A stretch of DNA of 64,000 nt from Microthyrium microscopicum (GCA_010405405.1 MU004230.1:1956627-2020626), one strand, 5' to 3'; positions 42,077-57,947 are shown, counted from the stretch's first letter. Notes: a model not told the origin generated them from the sequence alone. Translations and numbers: made by a program.

Positions 42077-43718
42077 TCAAGCCAGCCACCCTTTGATAAT
42101 TTCTGTAATCGTATTTTGAACCTAGATGTTCGTTAGATCAAGTTGCAATACCGGAATTTCAGGCTCATACCAGATCAAGCTCAGAATTAAAGCCTACCGG
42201 CTCCCCAATATTCGAGAAAAAGTCTTCTGTATGGCTCAACCCAGGCATAAAGACAATTCTAGTCGAGTTGGAAGATGTCGGCATGTCAAAAGTTGGAGGT
42301 CCATAAGCTGTAGTTGGGTCATAGCCCTGTTGTGTAATCAAAAGCCTTCCGACACTCTCCAATCTTTCCTTAGATACATCGAAGGTGTTGATCCAGTATT
42401 GACTTGACTCGTTGAAGTGTGGGCCCGTCCATTCAGGAACAGCACATGTCACTGGTACGTTCTGTGGCGGGAACATGCTTCCATTGCGGACTGAAAAGAT
42501 GTTATAAATCATGTAATTGCATTCAATCCATTCCCAGCTTTTCATTGCGACGTCAGCAACAGCTCCACCAGTGATGTTCGGAGATTTCCAGTCTAGACAC
42601 TGGCTTTGGTTGAGTTGCCAGTTTAGAAGCATTGCTGGAATCCGGAGAATGCTTCCGGTGTCGTTGACTTGAAGAGTCTGGTTTAAAATGTGCTGTAGAG
42701 GAAGACTTATTGGAAATGAAGTTGGTATGCGACTGTTGAACTGTGTGGCGTAGGTATAGGCCGATTCAACTGCAGAATAGAGTTCTAGCCATTCTGTGGA
42801 ATTGGCAGGCTGCGGACCACAGAGATGAAACTTGCCAGAAATCGAATTGCATGCTTCTTCTAATATTTGTAAGTGATGAATACAGTGAAGTCTTGGTCTA
42901 ATACTTACCACTTATAGCACACGACTCAAAATCGTACATTGCTTTACTAATCTTCGTGGAGGCTTCAAAAGACTGGTCTTGAAAGACTCTCGAGATCTGT
43001 TTACTTCCATTAGAACTAAGTATTTTGCTCGGATGCTTTACTTGCATAATCCCAGCGATTGAATCTATCCGGATTATCTGCTTGAGAGCCAAATGCCGAC
43101 AAAGGTGGAGCAGAAGCCCAGGCTGCATAGAACGTCTCTGGATGTTGAGTCCTTGCTACAGTTGCTAGAAAGCCACCATATGAGCCTTGCGCCAGGTAGT
43201 CAGCAAATGATTAGTAGAAACAATTCAAGTCTTCCAGTCAGCCTACCTCCATTTATAACAACTTTGGCATTTGAAGCGCCTGCGACAGTTTGCTTGACCC
43301 AATTCACAAAGTTTACAGCGTCCAACAGTACGTTTTCCAAAGTCAACACCGCAAAGTCTTTTGCAGTGACATTTGCAATTCCGACCCCAGCAGGGAAGCT
43401 GTCACCAAAAAAGCGATGTTCCAGGCCAGCGACAATGGCCCCCAGCTCTCCTGCTATGTCATCGAAATGGTTGTATTCAAGACAGTTGATTTGTGAACTT
43501 TCGGCGCCTTGGTAGAATAGAATCGGACCGCCAGGTTTGTACCGAGATGTGTCTAGTTGATAGCTTTGATGGAAGGTCGTTTTGTTGGTAGAGTTGTGAT
43601 CCAACAGCTGGGCGAACTGGCGTACTACATATTTGGGACATTGCGCTGCAGAGACTTTTGCTAAAAGCTGCATTACCGTGCAGAGAAAGACAAAGAAACG
43701 AAGTGTAGTAGTCCGCAT
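42077..43718 (-). CDS. Secreted serine peptidase family S28 (prolylcarboxypeptidase-like), 4 exons
   Basis: Signal peptide, QLLDHN, YKPGGPILFYQGAE, LEHRFFGDSFP, spliced GG/SYGG nucleophile motif, GYDP, LSHTED. Confidence 0.9.
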
Positions 43719-44116
43719 ATTGTGGTAAGTTTGTCAAGTTCAATCGGATGGTTGAAGTGTTTTGCGACATCCTCAACACGAGAGTCTAGAGAGTATTTTA
43801 TAGCTTCTTGGTCGAGCCATGACGTTGAAACAATCAACAATTCATTGTGATGATAATGGTAAATTCTTTTCGAGCTCCGCGGTGATGCCATGGTGAGTCG
43901 TCCATGATTTCCTAATCCGGTTGCATGTCGCATTGTGGAACTCCGCCATCCGCCTACCTGCATTGAGGCTCAGCCGCTAATGGATCGACAAGCAGATCAA
44001 CCATCCTGCAGCGGGCGATGATAGACAACACTGCCTTATTTATCGCAAGATGCCTCCCGACTTGGTAGAAAACACAGCTCCCGATGTTCATCGTCGAGTA
44101 TAATGGTTGGAGTTCG

Positions 44117-44298
44117 TATGACGGCTCATAACGGCCACCCTAGCCAGTTTAGCAAAACCAAAAAGTACAAAGCTCTACATTTTATAAATACAATATTCCT
44201 ATACCCATTTCCCTATTTTAGCGCTTTAGATAAATTCTAAAAGAGATATTCAAAAATTACATATTTTTTAATACCTAAATTAAGGTAATTAGTAATAA
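44117..44298 (+). repeat. Left terminal inverted repeat (182 bp)
   Basis: TATGACGGCTCATAACGGCCACCCTAG...TAAGGTAATTAGTAATAA aligns without gaps to the reverse complement of 55345-55526 (about 16 mismatches by eye). Confidence 0.96.
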
Positions 44299-44317
44299 TA
44301 ACTATAATATAGCAATA

Positions 44318-44593
44318 GTATAGCTATATTAGTAGGTAAAGTATAGCTATATTAGTAAGCAAAGTATAGCTACGTTAATAAAAAAGGGTAAGATAAGTAT
44401 AGCTACGTTAGTAAGTAAGGTATAGCTACGTTAGTAGGCAAGATATAGCTACGTTAGTAGACAAGGTATAACTATATTAGTAAGTAAGGTATAATTACGT
44501 TAGTAAGTAAGGCGCTAAGAAAGATATAGCTATATTAACAATAAAGGTAACAAGAAAGATATAGCTACATTAACGAGAAAGGTATAGCTATAT
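44318..44593. repeat. Subterminal tandem array of about 11 degenerate 23-bp units (GTATAGCTACGTTAGTAAGTAAG-like)
   Basis: Units read directly just inside the left TIR. Differences between units are mostly C/T and G/A. Confidence 0.9.
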
Positions 44594-44749
44594 ATTATTA
44601 ATTAAGGTAATATAATTAGTATATATATAGATTAGTAATAAAAATTAATTAAGAAAGGCTTTTAATTCTTAACGATATACTAATAGGTAGAAGTTAACTA
44701 TTATTATAAAATCTAATATAAAGTATAGTATTTTTCTCTTCTTCTTTAG

Positions 44750-46480
44750 TATTAGTTATACCTCCTAGGCAACTTTCATTATACTAAATACTTATATTAA
44801 TTTAATTATATACTAAGCCTCTATTAAGAGCTTAGTATTAACTAAAGGCTATACTAATACTAAGGTTTATAAATAGCTTCTTAATAAATATAGTATAGAG
44901 GTTTCTATTCAAACTATTTATTAAAGAATTAATAAATAGGGGATTTAAAGAAGAACTATATAGCTTAATAAAAATTTAAAGAACGTAATAAAAGCTTTGT
45001 TTTACGTCTTTAATAGCAATAAGAGGGAGATAATATATACCCTATAAGATTATAGGTATAAACTTTCCTAAAAGACTTTATAATAATATTACTAAAGGCT
45101 TAGAATATCTTATTAATAAGACTATAGATTATATTAAGAGTTCTACAAAGTATACTTTAAGGATAATTATAATACAATTTAGTATAAGCTTTAATAATCC
45201 TATCTTAGTATTATAAATTATAGATACTATATATTAGCAATAAGAATTAGAGCTTAGAGACGTAATATACCTCTAAGAAATATTCATTTTATCTAACAAT
45301 AATTAGATCTAGAAGCTACTACTACTTAATAGAAATAAGTATATTAAAAATAGGGCAAATATAAAGTTAAAAGTCTAGATTATATTTAGTCTATTAATAA
45401 GTATAATAAACTAAAGCAATTTAGCTTTAAGATTTATAGCTATATTAACGCCTACTTAAGACATCTTAACTATTATAATATTAGTATATTAAATAAGATA
45501 AGTATTAGTTATCTCTACTAATACTTAGATTATTTAGAAAGTAGATTAATTTAGCTATAATTTATTTAATTAGACTAAGGTAGTGAAATAATTATACTTG
45601 CTAATACTTATTATAAATTCTTACTTACTTATAAACTTAACCTTTATTTTAAGGACTATTTCTTATATAGGATAAGTATTACTAACTAATAGATAGAACG
45701 TTAATAAGGAAATCTTAGTAAATCTATACTAAATAAATAGAGAGTAAGTTTTATCTTATTAAAGTAATACTAATATATATTCTAAAAGATATACTAATTC
45801 CCTATAGAAGTTTTTTAAGTAGCTTTAAAGAGATAGCAAATTTTTATAAGATAGACTTACTAATTATATTATAATACTAGCTATATTTATACTTATCTTA
45901 TAAGATATTATTACTAGATACGTTTATAACTAGAATAATTATAAGTTAACTAATACTAAGAAAAGGCGCCCTAATACTATTAATAGAAAGCTATAGCACC
46001 TATATAATTATCCTTAGAACGTAGAGAAGATTAGCTTACTAATTAATCTTAAACTTATCTACATAGTAAAGTAATAAGCTAGTAACTAGAATAAAGATAC
46101 CTATCTATCTAAAAAAACCCTCTAATAATACTAATAAGAACTATAGTAGATAGGGTTTAATCCCTCTATAGATTCTTTTAGCAACGCCTAAAATTACTAA
46201 AGAAAGACTAATCTATTTAGAAGCATTTACTTAATTCTAAAGAGTATACTAAATAAATATATTCTTAGTAAATAGTTACTAATTATGTATCTTTTAGTAA
46301 TACTAAGCAATAGAGAGAATTAGATTAAAGCTAATCCTAGTTAGCTTACTATAGTTGTACTAGCTAATATAGAATAAGATAAAGTTAGGAAATTTATTAA
46401 AGTAAAGATAGCTAAGTTCTATACTATATTAGATATAGTAAGGATAGACTACTTTTATATAGAGTAAGCTCTATATTCTA
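44750..46480 (+). pseudogene. RIP-mutated DDE transposase (IS3/IS481 integrase-core, IS3EU-like); outer boundaries approximate
   Basis: In one frame, reversing only C>T/G>A changes gives NYGYRML, LDPEA, Y.VKGPDYIWSIDGYDKLKQFGFEIYGCIDAYSR, FIRSDRGSET, LYGTSVANQRIERWW. After a probable intron it gives YVHNWNNH and GKPWHLYNYP. Catalytic codons at 45396, 45573 and 45696. Confidence 0.85.
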
Positions 46481-49400
46481 ATAATAAGTCTTAGCTTACT
46501 TATTATAATACTTTACTATAAATAACGCTTTTCTAGTAGATAGATAATATATTTCTTAATTACTCTTTATCTAAGAAACTTAATTCTATTATATAAGAAC
46601 TTACTCTCTACTAATATATATATTAGGTTAATACTTATTTATTTCTTTAATATTTATACTCTTATATTTTTAATTTTATATTTATTATATTAGCTTTAGG
46701 CTCCTTTCGTAGACTTACTTAGATACTTAACTCCTAACTAAAAGGCATACTATGTCTAGCTTACTAGGATATAGATATAGCTTAGTAAAGAAGTTATAAT
46801 TAGAATATAGGTATAGAGTATTCTTTTTACTTCTAAGAAACTAGTATTTACTAAGTAAAGAGAATACCTTAACTAATAGAGAAGTAATTAAAAAAGAATC
46901 CTTAACTCTAAGTTAGATTACTACTAGAATTAGTAGTAATTAAAGAAGAAACTATTATTTATAATATTAAGTTATATCTATCGCCTACCTAATAAGTTTC
47001 TATAATTAAGACTAAATAATTTAGGTCTATAGGTAGTAGCCCTATATCCTTACTTAATTTATATATTTAAATAAAGGATTATTAGGATAGAGAAGAAGAT
47101 ATGCTAATATAAATAGAGTCTAAAGCTTTTATTACCTAGTTAGCTCCTTACCTAAACCTAGTATTAGTTAGGAATATAAAAATAGGTTAGCTTTAAAGTA
47201 TTAAAGATAATTTAAGTTTAATATATTAAAGCGCTAAAAAGACTTAAACTAAATAGCTTTATAATTTTAATACTTAGAAGCTTTTTTATAATAATATACT
47301 ACTAGATAGTAAAGAGATATTCTAAAAAGTAGCCTAAATAAGTAAGTTTACTAACTTACTAATAGAATATAGACTATTAGCTAATAAGAGCTAGGTTTTT
47401 TTAGTAGTATTATCTATTAGAGTAATATAGATAGTATTTTATACTTTATTATAAAGATCTTATTTAAGCATCTAGACTAGGATATTATTAAATAGTTTTA
47501 GGTATTATATAATAAGAGCAAAGGTATAAAGTCCTATATCTTCTTTTATAACGATATAGAGGATACCTAAGGAGGTATAGATAAAACTAAAAAAAAAGAA
47601 CTAAGGTTTAATAAGGTTAGTAAAATATACAACGAACCTTAGAGCTTAGAAGATTTTTTTAAGAATAGGCTATTTAAGCTAAAGAAGAAAAAGGGGACAA
47701 GTAAAGCATAATTTAATATTAACCTCGTCTTTTAGATTATAAGAATAAATTATAAGGCTTAGGTAGATTACTATAAGTAACTTAATAACTTAGAAACCCT
47801 AATTTTAAGAGAATAAGGATAACTTAGTAAAATAATACTAAGGCCTAAATATTTAAACACTATATTACCTATACTACTTTTAATTTAAAGTATTAAAAAG
47901 GAGAATAAGCTTAGTAGTACTATTACTATAGTTAATCCTAATACTTTTTAAAAGATTAAGAAAGAGTTTAAGCTAGCTATAATTAATCCTAAGGCTTTCC
48001 TTAACTTAACTAGATAAGGTAATGATAAAGATAAAGTTTCTAGCGAATTTAGTAATTCTAATAATAATAGAGAGCTACTAGAGGATAAAGAGCTACTAAA
48101 GGAAACTAAAGGTAATAATAACTATAAACTATACTTAGAGCTAATAAAGAAAATTCTTACTAAAAAGAAAAAGAAAGGTAATAATATAGAAAAGTTAAAG
48201 CTATAAACTAATAAGGCGCCCTATAAACGTAACGCCTTTAATACTAAGCTATTTAATTAAACCTTTTAAAAGTATAGAAAAGAGCTAGCAGTAAGCCTAA
48301 AATAAAAATAGAAGGAAGTAGAGGCTTAATAAGTTATATAGCTTACTACTAAGAAAGGTCTATAAGGTAGCTTAGGTAGGAAAAAAAAAAAAGGACGTAG
48401 TAATACTAATGAGTAAGATAAATATAGTAATACTACTAGTAGAAACTAATTTATCTTTATATCTCTTTACTAGTACTCTCTAGTTCTTCCTTTAGGTAGT
48501 TTTACTTTATATTACTAATAATATTACTTTTAGGTCTTATCTTTATTTTAATTTATAATATAATAATGCTACTAAGTAGAGCTTACTAAAAGAGGATAGG
48601 CCTAGCGCCTAGCTAGTTAAATAAAATAATATTAGTTTATAAATATAAAATAGCTTCTTATTAATTATTTAAAACGCTAGAGCACTTTAGCCTTAGGCCT
48701 TAGCTTTTACTAGGAATACTAACTAGGAATACTATATAGATAGTAATGCTATCCTTAAGAAGTAGACTATACTAGGCTATGCTAGACCTACTAAAAACTA
48801 GCTACTTTTTATTATTAGATATAGTGTTAATTTCTTTAATTCCTTAAAAAAAATTAATTATTTATTATTCCTTTAAGGCTTTAAGTAAAGAGAATTAAGC
48901 CTTTACGCCGCTTATATAGGCTTTAACTTATATAAGACTAAATAGTTAGGAAAGACTAATGCTTTGTCTTAAATAAGGACTACGTAATCTAACGATATAT
49001 CCTTATAAGGCTATATGTATATTACTAAATAATAAGTAACTAGCTTATTAAACTATAATGCCTTATCTTTATATTACTAAACTAAGCCCCTCTAAATCCT
49101 TAAGTAGTTTATTAACTTATAAGTCAAACCTAAGTAAACGTTAGTAAGTATAGTAATTAATATGACTTAGTAAAAAGAAGTTATAAAGTAGGATATAAAA
49201 AACTAGTATATAATAATAAAAAAAGTAAATAATAAGCTTAAGGGTAAGTAATATATAATATTTTTATAAACACGCTAGAAACAAAACCTAAATTAATAAC
49301 TAAATTAATTAAAAGCTATACTAAACTAAGAATCTAAATACTAAGGAGTTATTAGTTAAGTATTAATATAATTCTATAAAAAAATTAGTTATGTTTCTAT

Positions 49401-52400
49401 CTAATAATATTAACTACTTACTAAGAAATATAATAATAGTAGTTAAGCTCTAACTCTAATTCTAAAAAGACTTTTATAGCCTACTAATCTATAGAAGAGT
49501 TATAGTCTTGTTTAAGATAGATATAATATTAATTAATAGGAAATAACTTAAGAAGAGTTAATAAAGTTAATTATTAAGCCACTAGGTACTTAAAAATATA
49601 GATAGTAAGTCTTTTAATATCTAGACTATATCTTTCTAAGACTTTTTAATTAAGAGTAACTCTATTTTTTTCCTTATATATAATATAGTTATCTATATCC
49701 TTATTATTAAATTTATAATAGCACTCTAATAACCTCTTGCTATTATATTTATAAAAAGAGTAGCCTTTATTAAAGTTAACCTCCTAAACTAATTACTTAT
49801 TCTCTCCTTATTCTTTCTTAATCTTTACTCTATTTATCTCTTTTAAAGCTCTTAAAGATATATTAATTTTTTTAGCATTATTTAAAATATAAATAAGCTA
49901 ATAGTACTCTTTTTATTTAGTACTATCTATCTAAATAAAGCTTACCTTAGCCTTACTTATATTTTTAAGAATTCTTCTTACTTGCTTATATAATCTTTAT
50001 AATCTACTTTAAAAACGTATTAATAATATTAATACGCCCTTACCTTCTAAAAGATTTAAGTTACTAAACTTAACTAATAAGCCTATCGTATTACTATTGC
50101 GATCTATATATATCTTTATTTCTTCTACTTTTAAACGTACCCTAAAAATATTTAACTTCTCTTTACTATCTATATAGCGCTAAAGGTCTTTATAGAAGAG
50201 CTCTAAGTAAAATTCTTTAATTTAATATTATATTATATTAATTTATATCTAGTTATTAGTATTAAGGACTTAATTAAATCTATAACCCTTAAAGTAAATA
50301 TTATTAAGATAATATATAGGACGAAATAAAGCTTATAATTCCTTAGCTACCCCCTAGTAAACTAAGAAAGTAGCTAGAAATGTATAAGCTTTATTTATTT
50401 TAAGGACTTTTTAGCTAAATCTTTCTATATTAGAATATCTTATAAAGTAGCAACTTTAACTATAGAGTAAGATCTAAAGAAAGTTATACCTATATTAACT
50501 TATAATTTTAATCTACTCTTTGTCCTAGATGATATACTACTAAAAGATATACTATATTAAAAGAAAGTTAAATATAACTTATATATACTTCCCTTAGTAT
50601 TTTTAAGTCTTTATCTTTTAATATTAGACCCTAACTACTCCTTAGGTAAATTAAGAAAATAATTAGGGTTTAATATAGCTCTAGAAGAGCTAATACCTAC
50701 CTAAATTAGGATTTTTATTAGTCTAATATTAAGTTAGTATTTTTTTTAATAGTAGAAGAAAGTAGATAAATTCTTACCTATTAGTTATCTTGTTACTAAT
50801 ATATATTTCTTCTACGTAAAGTACTGCCTTAATTAATAATATAGTAGGTAGAGATCTAGTACTTTATTAGTATATATATAATAAAGTCCTTAGTAGAGAT
50901 ATACTATTATGTTAGATATAACTATCTTTCTAAAAAGAAGCACTATTAGCTATACTCTAATTAATATCTATAATATATATCTAAGTTTATAATTAGCTTT
51001 AACTTATTAATATAATACTATCCCTATAGATAGAAGACTTCCTAAAAAAATAAAAGAACTAAATATATAATAAGTATCTAAGGTAAGTAAAGTAGTATAC
51101 TTACTTTACTATCTTAGGCGTAATAATAATAAGTAAAAGTAAATGTATTAAAAAATAACTATTAAAATAAATAAAAATACTAAAGGTAATCTCTACTATC
51201 TTAAAGCAGATTAGTAGATAATAGAATAAATTTAGGACTTACTTAAAGCGTATATTATAAGCTTAAATTTAGCGAAGGATAGCTTATAATATACTTTTTA
51301 TATTTTTATTTTTATTAGTTATAATATATAAAATATAAGCTTACTATTTTATACCCCTAGATATTCTAAATAAATCCTTAGTTTATTCTTAAAGCTATTA
51401 ATTATTACTAGGTAATGAGGTAGATAGATACATAAGCCCTATAAGTTAAAAGTTTAACTACTTAGATTTTATAACATTCCTTTATAAATAAGCGTAACGA
51501 CTAATTAGTAACTACTATAGCTAGTAATATATTTTTAAATATTAGCTAACTCTAAGCTACTCTTTTACTATTTAATTATCTAGTATTTAGATATATACTA
51601 TAGTTACTACTTCTACCTACTAGGGACTAGCACTTTTTAACTTAAGAAGAACGCTACTTAAATAAAGATATTTAGAAATAGTTAATTAGCTTGCCTCTAT
51701 ATATTAATAAACTAATAATAATATTTATTAATATCTATTTACGTTATCTAGTATATATTAATAGAAAGTATATCTCTACCTTTCTTATAATATACTACTA
51801 ATTATATACTAAGTAATAAAGTTTCTCTATTTTTTTAGAGGCTTCTATATCTATATTCTTTTAATAATAATATTTACTACTTTAGATTAATAATATATAC
51901 TAAGATTTTTATCTAAGGAAAAATTAGGTATATTTAAAGTATAACTATTAGTTAATAAATAATATAGTTAAATTACCTTAATAAGGCTACCTAGAGTCCT
52001 TACCTAATAAACTTAACCTTCTTAGAAAAGATATATACTTTATATTAAAGTAAAGAGTATAACCTTTATTATACGTTAGGGCTAATATATTAGATATACT
52101 TATTAATACTAGATTAAGGTAGAATTACTTTTTATAAATAGAAATACTCTTAGTAAAATTAAGAGCCTATAGTTTATATAGGTTAATAATCCTATAACTT
52201 ACTTATACTATTTATATTATTCCTAATATAGTACTTATGCTTCCTAAGGATATAGAGTACTATATAGAATTATCTCTATATATAATAATAATAAAGCTAT
52301 AATAATATTAAAAAGTCTTTATATAGCCTAGTTTAAATGAAAATTATAGTAGAAAATTATAATAGTTAGCTTTAGTTTTTAGGCTTTACCTTCCTCTTAA

Positions 52401-55055
52401 TTGCTAACTTACTAGTATTTAGTTTAGATAGTATTTAAATAATATACTAGTTTTTAACTAACTTTCCTCTATATTATAAAATATAAGCTTCTTTAATATA
52501 TAGAATAACCTAATTACTATACCCTAGACTAGAGTATAACTACTACGTAAGCATAATAGGTTATATAGAACTATAACCTTAGGAAAGTATTATTAGTAAA
52601 ATAAGTAAAGGAAGAATAAGATTAGACTTAAAAAGTATACTAGAATTATTCTATTATAACTAGTAAGCCTATCTATAAAATAAAATTTCTAAATAAAGAA
52701 GTAATTAGTTATTATTAATAAGCCTATTATAGATAGTAGTCTATAGTAGGCTATAACTAATAAAGGGTAGTAATATTATTTATATTCTATATATAATATC
52801 TCTAAGTAGTAAGTAGTTATAGTATTTAGTATAACTAAAATACTAATTAATTAATAGTTAAAAACTACTTATATTATTATAAATTAACCTAGCGCGATAT
52901 AATATATTAATATAGAACGTATTAATATTAAAAATGTTAAGACTTTTTTTTAAAAGAAAAAAATTAATATAAAAAATACCTTACTATTTTAATCTTTTCT
53001 AGAAAGCATATTAGAAAAGAGCAACTAATAAAGTATAATAAGACATTTCTAATAATAAATACTAAAGCATAAATAGTTATAAAGATTATTATAATATTAT
53101 TACTTTAAAAGGGTCTTAATATTAATTAAGATCTATTAAGATGCTCTTATAGTAATTTTACTAAGTATTAGTATAAATATACTACTTAATAAGCTTTATT
53201 ATAGAAAGCTCTGCTTACTTAAGTAATACGTAGTATTAAATACTACTACTTAGTAATAGAAAGGCTTTATAGCTATCCTAGCTAGTTAATACTTATATAT
53301 TTAGAAAACTAGACTAAGTTATAAAGATAGGTTAGACTAGTAATCTCTACTAGTTTTAGCTACCTTAAAGCTAAGTAATTATTAAATAGTACTTTAAAAA
53401 GTAACTATAAGTTATTCTTTTTATTTTACTAAAATAAATATATATAATAAGTAAAATAATATCTTAATTCTTTAATAATATCTCAATTCCTTATATAATA
53501 AGTAAAATAATATCTTAATCCTTTATGTAAGATATTTCTTTATAAAGAGTAGATACCTTAATATATTTTAATAAGTTGTCTATAGAGTACGCGCTATAAA
53601 TAAAATACTAAGCATTTTATTATGAGGTATCTTACTATATATATTCTCTTAAGTAGTCTCTAAGGAGGAATAGTATAGTAAGCTTTATAATTAATTTTAT
53701 ATATATAAAAGTATACTATACTAAAGAGTATAGGATTAAGAGTAAAGAAAGCCTTTTAGCTAAGAAAGCTTACTCTATAGTAATAGGATATTATTCCTAA
53801 AGTAATACTTACTACTAGATTATTATAGTAAGACTATATAGGTATAAAACTACTATATAGTATAAGCTTAATATTATTATAGATTCTATGTGATTTTTAA
53901 TATTATATATTAGAATTTACTAAGATTTTACCTCTTTTTTTCTATAAAAGAGCTAAAAATCTATTATTACTTTACTTACTTAGCTCTTAATATAGCTATA
54001 AAGAAACTTAGTAAGACTTAGGTACGTATACTACTTGCTATATAAACTAGCTTAGCGCTACTTAGATATAATAGCTAAATTAGAGTTATAGTCTCTTTCT
54101 TACTTAATACTAAAAAATTTTACTTTATTAAACCTTCTCTACTATAATTTTATTACTTAATTATATTAGTTATACTTAATTTAATAAAGGAATATAAACT
54201 TATATACAATTTAGCTCTATAAGATTATTATATAGTAGTACTAACTATCTTAGTACTAATCTTACGCTATTTCCTTACTTTTTTTACGTTCTTATAAGCA
54301 TAGTATTCTATAATAGTAGGCTAGCCCCTTAAATATTTAAATATAGATACGTTTTATAAGATAATTAGTATTTATAAAGAATACTTACGCCTCTAGCGTT
54401 AGTAGTTCTACTAATTAGTAAGCTAAATAGTATATATAATAGTTTAGTACGTAAGCTAAGAAATATAGGCCTACTAAAACGTAACTTTACTTTATATAAT
54501 ATAAATAGAGAAGTCTAAAATACTCTATATTAATGTCTTAAAGCTTACGTAATTATATTAAAAGCTAGAAATTACTTTTAGGAATGTAAATTAGTAGTAA
54601 AGGAGTATTAAAAGATATCGTAACTAAAAGGATAAAAGTTTTTAGTAACTTAGACTTACTAAAAGTTAGTAAAGTGATTATAAGTAAAAAGGATAATGCG
54701 CTAGAATAATATTATTTAATAAGGAATTATGCCCTTCTTGCTATTAAGATATAATACTTAACCTAAAGGGATAATATATAAAGGAATAACTTAAGAACCT
54801 ATAAAAGGGATAATATCCTAAAAGGAATATTATAGCTAAGGCTTACTTATAAGCTAATTTAGTAAGGAACTACTACTACTAAGCTTTACTAAACTTTACT
54901 ATAGTTATAAATCTATAACCTTACTTTTATCCTTTTAAGAAAGGAGCCCTATAGTGCTAGCCCTAATTAAAATCCTTATATAGAGTTATTTTATTTATTA
55001 AAACTATTTTAGGGAAGATATTATAAGTATAGTCCTCCTAAAGAATATTCTCTTA

Positions 55056-55322
55056 CTAAATTTAGTAAGCTTTTCTACGAACTAATATCTTTGCTTATAA
55101 TATATCCTTATAACTATACTAAAATCTACCTATAGCTTATAGCTTTTAACTTATAAGAATATCTTCTAGAGGCGCTTTTTCCTAAATTTAGTAAGCTTTT
55201 TTATAAATTAACATCTTTACTTATAATATACTCTTATAACTATACTAAAATCTACCTATAGCTTATAGCCTTTAACCTATAAGAATATCTTCTAGAGGCG
55301 CTTCTTCCTAAATTTAGTAAGC
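55056..55322. repeat. 126-bp tandem repeat (2 full copies plus start of a third) just inside the right TIR
   Basis: CTAAATTTAGTAAGC recurs at 55056, 55182 and 55308, and the intervening sequences align. Confidence 0.9.
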
Positions 55323-55344
55323 CTCTAACTAATATCTATATTAG

Positions 55345-55526
55345 TTATTACTAATTACCTTAATTTAGGTATTAAAAAATACATAATTTTTAAATATCTC
55401 TTTTAGAATTTATCTAAAGCACTAAAATAGGGAAATAGGTATAGGAATATTGCATTTATAAAATGTAGATATTTGGACCTTTTGGTTTTGGTGAAGTAGC
55501 CAGGGTGGCCATTATGAGCCGTCATA
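55345..55526 (-). repeat. Right terminal inverted repeat (182 bp)
   Basis: Ends ...CAGGGTGGCCATTATGAGCCGTCATA, the reverse complement of the left end. Confidence 0.96.
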
Positions 55527-57947
55527 GTTCGAAAGAGCAACGGTTGCTTGACCTGCCGAAAAAGCAAGATCAAGGTCAGTCCCAGGCTCCCAGCGCCCAC
55601 ATTTCTGAGCACAACCACGTCAACCTGTAGGCAAAATAACCTAGCCCTATCGTATCCTTCCAATTATCCAAACTGTGATGATCGCCTTTCTGCATTATTG
55701 AATGGCAGGCAACGGAGTAGAGAGGACCAAGCACGGCCGTCATTTCGTTGACGACCTGTCCTGCTCAACCACAGGAAAAGAGCCAGGGATCCAGGCTAAC
55801 AAATGATAGTGCGACGAGACAATTCCTACATGTACGAGATGCGAAAGACGCGGAACTCAATGTCGCTACCCGGAGAAGTTCTCGTTCGTCAAGAGCAACG
55901 AAAGCTCTCGATCCATTTCGACCAAGGACAGCCATGATGTTACGATACCTGTCAAAACAGGCGAATATACCTTCACCACTGAGAGATTCACTGAAAGTGG
56001 AGCACTGATTCAAAAGTGGCATCGCTCCAGAATTAGCTGCCAGCCAGCCCTTGCGCAGGTTGAAAGGCAATCAATCGAGCTGATAAGGTGCCTGGATCAA
56101 GGTCGCATAGGAGCTCGAATGAACTGGTTTGGCGAGTGGGTGTCCCTAGTACCACAGCGGATAGGAACATCGGATGCACTGGATCAAGCTGTGAAGGTTA
56201 TGGCTTTGGCTTATCAAGCAATTATACGCAATGATTGCCCTTCAACTTGGATCGATCCACGCGCTTATGCTCGTGCTTTGAAAAGCTTACGACGAGCTCT
56301 CACAGATGAGACCGATTGCTGGTCTTGCGAGACCTTGACGGCCGTCACTATACTATATTATCTCGAAGTAAGTGCAGATTCCATGTGGGAGGTCTAGACC
56401 AGTTTCTGACTCGAAATGTGCAGGCCATCTTGGGCAACCCAAATGAATTCAACGCGGTCCAGCATGCCGGAGGCATTGTCCGCCTACTTGAAGTTCGAGG
56501 CCCACCACCCAATCCTTCGAGATTCGAAACATCAATCACTGCCCATTTACGTGGTCCTGTGGTAATGAAGACACTCGCTTTGATCCCAGTGTCTTAAGCT
56601 AACAACGAGAAGGTTATGAAGGCAATACAGTTTGGTGTGCCTTGCTTCTTCACATCTCCAAAATGGAGCTCGATTCTAGAGGCTGAGGAGGCGTCCGCGG
56701 CAACTCCTCCTTGGGCCCAAAGGCTAATACAGCAGTTCTTGTGGTGGAACGAGCTGATTGTGGAAGTTCGTGGGTATCTCAATGGTCAGCTTTCGATAAC
56801 AAAAATTGGAGATCTCCAGAACAGACTTTCAGCCACAAAAATGATCTTGGATTCAATCAACGAGGACATTGAAGAAGAGCTTGCCAACGAGGAGCATATC
56901 AAGTCAGTGATTAATGCCAAAGCCGATTCAGCGTTTGAAAAAGCATTTAGTCCAAAGAGTTATGCCTTTTCAAGTCTGAGCATGATACATGCTGGCTTCT
57001 CATTTGCGATCGACAGAATGCTATTTCTAACAAACCGAAGCAATGTAACACCATGCTTCCCAGGCGTCGATAGACCATGGACTATTCAAAAGCCGCAGAT
57101 TTTCGCTAGAATGTGGCAGACCCACCAATACGCATTAAAATTACGACCTGTCGGAGCATCGTTTATGCATCTACCACTTATGCTAGCATTCATGCATGCG
57201 GAATCTGACGAAACCAAAGCTCTTATTCTCGATGCCATAAACCAAATTAACGAACATCGGCTGGAACAGGGACAACGATTTGTAGCTGCCTCGGTGGCAT
57301 ACATAGCAAAGTTATATACAGGCGAAGTGCCGCCAATACCAGCCGCGTCATGATTTATGCTTATACCAGACTCAAAGCAAATAGTGGTCTCCAAGGCCCG
57401 GCACAATTATTGTTCAAAATTTCGATGGCTAGATTAGAATCCAGATAGAATGCAGAACTAGAGTAACGTCGTATCCTTGAGCGCCAGAAATCCAACTCTT
57501 AAAAGTTTGACGTCACGCTGTATTTGAGGTAATTGTTCAAAGTCGGCATCTTCAGCCTTGTAAATCGTTATGCAGCTGGGTTGCGACTCCGTGGAGGCAA
57601 CTCGAGCGCAAGTTTAAACTTATCTCAAAATTTCCTCTTTCGGAATCATCCTGCGACACTGCATAAGATCGGCACCTGTCACTTAGTGGCGATTTCTACT
57701 GCTTTCTGAGCCACAAATGTCATTCTTGACTTGGTAGTCGTAGAGGAATATTTCATAGGCCTATTCTGGTCCAAAAATAGCCGAAAACAAGATATAAGAC
57801 TCGAGCCTGCAGACCTTTTGTGCTGAAATGCAACACAGCACCTTTGCATCCGACTTCCAATACCCTCACCAGCACCTCGGGTTTAACGCAACATCAAAAC
57901 AATTTCTCTTGCGAATCCTTCCGATTCATTAATTACTAAACCTCAAC

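Follow-up and report, generated by a model that had tools for sequence, protein, structure and literature searches.

A probable IS3EU-type DNA transposon, degraded by repeat-induced point mutation, in the first exon of a Zn2Cys6 regulator gene of Microthyrium microscopicum

What is the long AT-rich block that lies within a gene of the dothideomycete Microthyrium microscopicum, and what is left of the functions it once encoded? The block occupies 44117-55526 (11,410 bp, about 21% GC) of a 64,000-nucleotide stretch (GCA_010405405.1 MU004230.1:1956627-2020626; hereafter the window, with positions counted from its first base). GC content per 1-kb segment is 0.198-0.276 inside the block and 0.43-0.57 elsewhere in the window. 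We consider it very probable that the block is a single, structurally complete and functionally dead copy of a DNA transposon of the IS3EU superfamily, which landed within the first exon of a gene for a Zn2Cys6 transcription factor.

Both ends of the block are sharply defined. The left junction passes from ...GGAGTTCG into TATGACGGCTCATAA..., and the right junction from ...TTATGAGCCGTCATA into GTTCGAAAG; the element itself begins with TATGACGG and ends with CCGTCATA, giving TAT...ATA tips. The two arms of its terminal inverted repeat (TIR) align without a gap, with 166 of 182 positions and all of the first 15 identical. An inverted-pair search of 43800-55900 returned 109 pairs, the longest of which is 44117-44306 / 55337-55526 (190 nt at 90%; 19 mismatches, comprising 12 transitions and seven transversions), followed by a runner-up of 42 nt at 71%. 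A second TIR tip is absent from the rest of the window when matched as purines and pyrimidines with up to 12 of 60 mismatches. GTTCG is found on both flanks, a five-base identity with a chance probability of 1/1024, and of the 24 stop-free stretches of at least 60 aa listed for 43000-56800, only two (60 and 62 aa) fall wholly inside the element. An earlier note, made from the sequence alone, had described a complete TIR-bounded element without open reading frames (ORFs); the gap-free 182-bp TIRs, the GTTCG flanks, the sharp change in GC content, and the scarcity of stop-free stretches all agree with that description.

The element family is repeated in the sequencing runs of the source. Of the words sampled from the element, 40-66% occur in each of four runs of one sample and 14% in a run from another organism; no RNA run is listed as containing them. 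Contigs matching the stretch at 80-100% identity number 2,739 in run X1 and 2,478 in run X3; in X1 they divide into 636 at ≥99%, 790 at 95-99%, 955 at 90-95%, and 358 below 90% identity, and the differences among them are 1,444 transitions and 81 transversions. Position 44117 is the exact point at which contigs with different flanks part (runs X1 and X6), and other copies in the runs have the interior in common with the element. Summed contig depth is about 3-6 times that of the flank over 44.5-49.4 kb, reaching 20-30 times towards the right end; this depth is not a copy number.

Shorter forms also occur in these data, in which parts of the element left uncovered in X5 and X6 count as no evidence. 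One 566-nt contig of X6 begins with 44117-44171, the left tip, and ends with 55486-55526, the right tip, and so resembles a short derivative of the miniature inverted-repeat type that has retained the element's tips. Two other long X6 contigs show a TIR tip adjoining unrelated sequence. Run X5, from organism B in another sample and study, contains 132 contigs at 80-99% identity with transition-type differences, as well as deletion joints at 44487>53898 and 44510>53899 with 39-40 filler bases. The organism B joints and the 566-nt contig would look like internally deleted, non-autonomous derivatives.

Removal of the element together with one GTTCG rebuilds the zinc cluster of the gene around it: MVGVRKSNGCLTCRKSKIK joined to CDETIPTCTRCERRGTQC reads as a perfect CX2CX6CX6CX2CX6C cluster. 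A public protein (P0001; source name: hypothetical Zn(2)-C6 protein, Microthyrium microscopicum) is identical to this reading from 55810 onward. Its model starts MSRHSSKEQ... at an ATG inside the right TIR, takes exon 1 in the wrong frame, and is without the first three cysteines, which form the first half of the zinc cluster (window 55514-55575). It also uses another donor further downstream, such that the acceptor at 55810 is the only point it shares with the intron of our reading. The public regulator model is an annotation error, starting in a transposon TIR and missing half of the zinc cluster.

No spliced read across the inferred intron at 55575-55809 was seen in the run contigs. A spliced contig of the RNA-like run X6 (55625-56526) begins within this presumed old intron, passes 55810 unspliced, and removes an intron at 56368-56423. 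The regulator seems to be still transcribed downstream of the insertion, without exon 1.

The block contains the remains of a transposase gene. When the X-read frame 44605-46488 was queried by phmmer against 1.84 billion proteins, two weak matches (E about 1e-4) were returned, which led to the discovery of the relic. One match, from an Aspergillus, contains the Pfam domains rva_4 (integrase core, E 7e-10) and Clr5 (E 2e-6). The Clr5 domain (Pfam PF14420) is named after a fission-yeast heterochromatin/silencing factor. The family consists of fungal proteins of roughly 500 aa; 12 were found in the first search, and a profile search recovered 446 at E≤0.001 among 8,000 scored candidates. Among the 120 listed, all named ones are fungal and come from Aspergillus, Penicillium, Talaromyces, lichen fungi, and others. 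Most members are annotated as hypothetical, Clr5-domain, or integrase-core proteins (P0002-P0125, L001-L080).

A hidden Markov model (HMM) of 11 family sequences matches the element colinearly in two plus-strand frames (68.8 and 50.2 bits), and one of 51 sequences does so at 101.8 and 55.3 bits, with the best other frame at -6.5 bits. Catalytic motifs had been supposed in another frame near 45.1 kb; that reading was dropped after the search with the 11-sequence HMM. The relic spans 44796-46272 (+), 1.48 kb including a 64-nt intron, in accordance with the earlier suggestion of a transposase relic under 2 kb; the gene begins about 680 bp from the left tip and reads inward. A Clr5-type N-terminal domain and the DDE core both lie in exon 1. 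Of the catalytic residues, the first D has become N (XSINKY), while the second D (LDXGSE) and the E (NXXIERXX) are kept. Three uncorrupted relatives, L003, L007, and L029, lose the open frame at the place homologous to the intron. Because the only frame change corresponds to a canonical intron, the relic is free of frameshifts and was killed by point mutations alone.

Almost all of the damage in the relic consists of C>T or G>A changes, which are characteristic of repeat-induced point mutation (RIP). After splicing, its 471 codons include 54 stops; 49 of these are aligned with the best family member, 27 of them opposite R, W, or Q. Identity to this member is 25%, or 49% with RIP-derivable changes (C>T / G>A) allowed, compared with 5.7±1.0% and 17.2±1.6%, respectively, in shifted-pairing controls. 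We also scored the profile in a RIP-aware manner, summing over possible pre-RIP codons, which gave 208 and 107 bits for the two exons versus 18.5±2.2 (maximum 24.1) for ten shuffles and 17-22 for the other four frames; the RIP-aware alignment of exon 2 extends to 46335. The element carries a single RIP-killed transposase gene with one intron, which encoded a Clr5-type DNA-binding head and an RNase-H-fold DDE core of IS3EU type.

The whole element bears the same marks. A RIP-degraded sequence is expected to have a TpA/ApT index above 0.89 and a (CpA+TpG)/(ApC+GpT) index below 1.03. Inside the element these indices are 1.67 and 0.14, versus 0.64-0.73 and 1.27-1.36 in the flanks, and divergence among copies is nearly transition-only. 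The element is thus a RIP-degraded repeat by both indices and by the divergence of its copies.

Assignment to IS3EU is based on the catalytic core and the termini. In the alignment of PMC10045372 (supplement part 12), IS3EU and GingerRoot cores share W.(I/V)D(G/S)..KL, ID(G/A).SR, R.D.G.E, and NQ(R/K)IE..W, with a few rows deviating at one place (e.g., NVKIE); the Ginger2 rows (QSQG.VER) and the IS3 rows (QNG..ES) both lack the IS3EU blocks. By eye, the signature of our family, W.IDGY.KL / ID.YSR / SD.GTE / NQRIE.WW, is the published IS3EU core signature, and the blocks of the Aspergillus family (IWSIDGYLKL / IDAYSR / RSDRGTE / NQRIEAWW) recur in the relic. For catalogued IS3EU families of fungi, Table S1 of PMC12730594 gives the first 400 bases; we counted matches to their tips by hand, ungapped from base 1. 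The element's TIR tip is identical at 20 of 30 positions to IS3EU-1_PGra (21 with the two arms RIP-corrected) and at 20 of 30 to IS3EU-4_PGr, including a common GCCAC..T.GCCA box. The binomial probability of at least 20/30 is 2e-6 at p=0.25 and 4e-4 at p=0.35. Families starting with TACGG (IS3EU-2_PGr, IS3EU-3_PCor, and IS3EU-1_TuIn) are less similar.

IS3EU families always have TA..TA termini and a target-site duplication (TSD) of "usually 6 bp" according to the available portion of PMC10045372, in line with the earlier note, and fungal ones have TAYGG..CCRTA ends, TIRs longer than 30 bp, and 6-bp TSDs in the corresponding portion of PMC12730594. The element has the TAYG terminus, and its gap-free TIR of 190 nt at 90% is longer than 30 bp. 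The IS3EU reading put forward in the earlier note is backed by the TA..TA tips, by a relic with the IS3EU core signature, and by the likeness of the TIR tip to catalogued families.

Among known elements, the closest in build are the rust families IS3EU-1_PGra, IS3EU-4_PGr, and IS3EU-7_PSt (PMC12730594, PMC10045372), which like the element have TAYG-type TA..TA tips and TIRs longer than 30 bp, with the subterminal GCCAC..T.GCCA box at an equal distance from the tip. The protein IS3EU-1_PGra1p reads IWS.DG..KL / IDAWSR / TDRGTET / NQKIE, the same DDE core signature as the relic, and the rust size class of 8.3-12.9 kb brackets the 11.4 kb observed here. The size of the element is by itself not new, since Table S1 of PMC12730594 already lists IS3EU families of 8.3-12.9 kb from rust fungi. 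The element differs from them in its dothideomycete host, in a TSD that reads 5 rather than 6 bp, in TIRs far longer than the stated minimum, and in the fifth tip base, where both arms have A rather than G. Neither a TET/JBP nor an alpha-kinase relic was recognized in it, in a search that is insensitive after RIP.

Styx (REP9) of Zymoseptoria offers a comparison within the Dothideomycetes. The accessible parts of PMC8232023 and PMC10853768 assign it to IS3EU, as a distant member, via its rve-type integrase, in agreement with the earlier note. They describe it, like our element, as bigger than a plain transposase gene and RIP-degraded in some species, and report it only from Zymoseptoria. In contrast to our element, as described there, it is 7.9 kb long, with TIRs of 36-43 bp, a 6-bp TSD, and four genes. 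Two of these, REP9-1 and REP9-2, have DUF3716, a domain also found in the metagenome relative L003 described below. The four-gene/DUF3716 feature was not found in the element: a RIP-aware scan for a DUF3716 relic with a four-sequence profile gave 17.9 bits at best (z 1.5), with low power. Measured against this description, the element is not Styx, since TIR length, size, and gene content, as far as testable, differ. GingerRoot, which forms one clade with IS3EU in the accessible part of PMC10045372, has the same core signature, a 6-bp TSD class, and mostly TA..TA tips, but is described there from a clubmoss and animals, with no Clr5-type N-terminus reported in that part.

A scan of metagenomes with the family alignment identified 481 loci encoding relatives, while a scan with the 23-base TIR tip gave no matches. 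We studied 80 of these loci (L001-L080) and examined the 58 of at least 2 kb for TIRs. A TIR pair with TAYRG tips surrounds the family gene in nine of the 58, representing eight distinct elements of 2.2-7.9 kb, whose tips match that of the element at 11-20 of 30 positions. The closest is L048, of the same transposase family, with the tip TACGGAGGCCCATAACG... (20/30 identical) and, like the element, long TIRs. It differs from the element in being 6.6 kb long, with TIRs of about 1.2 kb and 54% GC without RIP degradation. An exact TSD flanks two of the eight distinct relatives, in both cases of 6 bp (CGTAAT in L048 and TGTGCC in L058/59), and none is visible in the other six, perhaps as a result of unrelated flanks being joined in metagenome contigs that span repeats.

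Three further features of these relatives were noted. The TIRs of L048 (L048:4581-11183) are 85% identical to each other and consist largely of GC-rich short repeats. L003, a 4.4-kb TACGG-ended element, has an ORF with DUF3716 near its right end (L003:4163-4633, +; E 1e-10). Downstream of the transposase, L003 and L035 also have a second gene in common, for which Pfam gives no match.

Several observations weigh against the assignment of the block to a single IS3EU element. About 8.7 of its 11.4 kb has no assigned content, and the uneven contig depth means that part of the interior could be foreign. The TSD reads 5 bp, compared with the usual 6. The core-signature and TIR-tip comparisons with catalogued IS3EU families were made by eye and by hand from supplements, outside any tree. 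Neither Zymoseptoria nor Puccinia appears among the 120 listed of the 446 family proteins. Pfam searches of six whole X-read frames gave no family at E≤1, and those of 16 element segments gave two chance-level matches, bPH_7 (17 bits, below cut-off) and UBP8 (E 0.2); the 16 segments had been picked by a purine/pyrimidine coding score, which proved a poor guide.

These points invite other readings of the block. An integrase-type superfamily such as Ginger2/TDD, Ginger1, or Polinton shares the rve fold, and Tdd/Ginger2 elements have a 5-bp TSD and long TIRs. We regard such an origin as very improbable: the relic and its family have NQRIE.WW at the place of ...QSQG.VER... in the Ginger2 rows; Pfam rva_4 is present besides rve in family members; the tips are TA..TA; and Pfam scans of the element, insensitive after RIP, found no polymerase, ATPase, or capsid relic. 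Still more remote is a Tc1/mariner-type TGACGG...CCGTCA element with a TA duplication, which the TA at both junctions would allow if the GTTCG repeat, at odds of 1/1024, were a coincidence. That reading is refuted by the host frame, since the TA model yields MVGVRSSKEQ... and loses the zinc cluster, and by a transposase match of the integrase type. A greater claim can be made for a composite structure, in which one or more unrelated RIP-degraded repeats were inserted into a smaller IS3EU element and 11.4 kb is not the native size. The relatives with both ends measure 2.2-7.9 kb, the left and right halves are several-fold apart in summed contig depth, and nothing was recognized in 46.3-55.0 kb. 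However, we found neither internal direct repeats resembling long terminal repeats nor further TIR pairs in the element; other copies and the run of a second organism share interior segments, with internal-deletion joints between the ends (44487>53898, X5); and IS3EU families of 8.3-12.9 kb are catalogued. In our account, the depth gradient arises because internally deleted, non-autonomous derivatives of one element are present, and we consider a composite rather unlikely.

The length of the TSD is a separate matter. With symmetric ends, 5 bp (GTTCG) are shared by the flanks; the base before the left GTTCG and the last base of the element are both A, so that 6 bp (AGTTCG) are shared when that last A is counted as target. 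This rests on the single copy seen with both flanks. The earlier note held that a 5-bp TSD is fixed by the host reading frame. That claim does not stand, because the 5- and 6-bp models leave an identical empty site, between which the frame is unable to decide; the frame rules out only duplications of 0, 2 (TA), or 3 bp, each of which breaks the zinc cluster, and in both distinct relatives whose TSD is visible it measures 6 bp. It is a serious possibility, if somewhat short of an even one, that this is the same IS3EU element in a family whose true duplication is 6 bp, with the 5 bp seen here reflecting a one-base ambiguity or a one-off event. IS3EU TSDs are "usually 6 bp" in the part of PMC10045372 available, the Styx TSD is 6 bp in 33 of 36 copies in that of PMC8232023, and L048, one of the two relatives with an exact 6-bp TSD, has the tip most like that of the element. 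On the other hand, under the 6-bp reading the right end falls one base short of the left and loses its terminal TA; six of the eight distinct relatives are without any exact TSD, making metagenome flanks weak evidence; and a single flanked copy represents the element's own family. That a 5-bp TSD is a property of the family seems to us doubtful.

The ~8.7-kb interior also bears on the description of the element as a multi-gene one in the earlier note. The transposase is the sole gene identified, and scans of the interior recognized no family, leaving "multi-gene" as a deduction from size. Single passenger ORFs from the relatives found nothing in the interior by phmmer, nor did plain HMMs of eight relative ORF clusters. 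RIP-aware scans gave a best z of 2.7 with eight ORF-cluster profiles, within the range of shuffles, and at best 25.5 bits with 71 profiles, within the shuffle maxima. By the purine/pyrimidine coding score, the strongest signal in the element (74 bits over 377 codons) belongs to a K/E/N-rich frame at 47313-48443 (+), which contains 30 stops and has no recognizable family. This frame may be the relic of a charged cargo protein.

If the IS3EU assignment is correct, the transposase of the intact ancestor would have bound the TIRs, with their conserved TAYGR tip and GCCAC..TAGCCA box, cut at the tips, and integrated the element via cuts staggered by 5-6 bp. With several copies present, RIP would then have destroyed this one, which could no longer move by itself.

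IS3EU is thinly documented; among Dothideomycetes, Styx of Zymoseptoria is the only element met in the portions of the literature that we searched. The element described here extends structurally complete IS3EU to another dothideomycete order, with a history dated by RIP. What is new is this host lineage, the combination of very long TIRs and subterminal repeats specific to each end, and the possible 5-bp TSD. Moreover, the widespread Clr5 plus integrase-core "hypothetical proteins" of ascomycetes would, on their sequences, be recognized as IS3EU-type transposases; a full-text literature search found no mention of Clr5 together with IS3EU. The 446 database proteins and 481 metagenome loci tied to IS3EU in this way provide a handle for annotators, and RIP-aware profile scoring, which doubled the relic signal, is reusable for other RIP-degraded elements.

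A bolder proposal, to which we give little credence at present, is that these proteins mark an uncatalogued IS3EU clade across Pezizomycotina with a Clr5 DNA-binding head. In Microthyrium this clade would have given rise to a form that carries cargo, is unusually large at 11.4 kb, and has a true 5-bp TSD, as well as to short derivatives, such as the 566-nt contig bearing the two tips, which evade RIP and are maybe still mobile. If such a Clr5-headed clade were real, fungal Clr5-domain regulators would be candidates for transposase domestication. The coordinates of the element and of the interrupted gene are collected in Table 1.

Table 1. Features of the IS3EU-type element and of the host gene around it, in window coordinates
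Feature	Position	Strand	Remarks
Host gene start, ATG GTT GGA GTT CG	44103-44116	+	Element inserted 14 bp after ATG
Left TSD copy, GTTCG	44112-44116	+	Last five bases of interrupted host-gene start
Left TIR	44117-44306	+	Tip TATGACGGCTCATAACGGCCACCCTAGCCA; inverted-pair search
Left-end subterminal tandem repeats	44298-44584	+	23-bp unit, ~9 copies, then 35-bp unit; absent from right end
Transposase relic, exon 1	44796-45743	+	HMM columns 6-324, 101.8 bits, E 1.2e-32; RIP-aware 208 bits
Transposase intron	45744-45807	+	64 nt, GTAAGT...TACTAAT...TAG; accounts for single frame change
Transposase relic, exon 2	45808-46272	+	Conserved C-terminal region; HMM columns 310-469 of 505, 55.3 bits, E 1.6e-18; RIP-aware 106.6 bits
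RIP-degraded interior	46336-55050	.	~8.7 kb, no protein family recognized
Right-end subterminal tandem repeat	55051-55322	+	126-bp unit, 2.2 copies
Right TIR	55337-55526	-	Inverted-pair search; holds ATG 55514-55516, start in public gene model
Right TSD copy, GTTCG	55527-55531	+	Junction reading
Rest of host exon 1, KSNGCLTCRKSKIK	55532-55574	+	First half of Zn2Cys6 cluster
Host intron, GT...AG	55575-55809	+	235 nt; inferred from zinc-cluster reading; exon 2 (CDETIPTCTRCERRGTQC...) from 55810

The subterminal repeats differ between the two ends of the element, and the copy number of both varies among the other copies in the runs. At the left end, this variation is seen in contigs with a "goes back 46" joint, and at the right end in contig joints of 107-252 nt. 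Outside the element, run X6 contains a spliced minus-strand transcript of the upstream gene, with an intron at 43185-43245.

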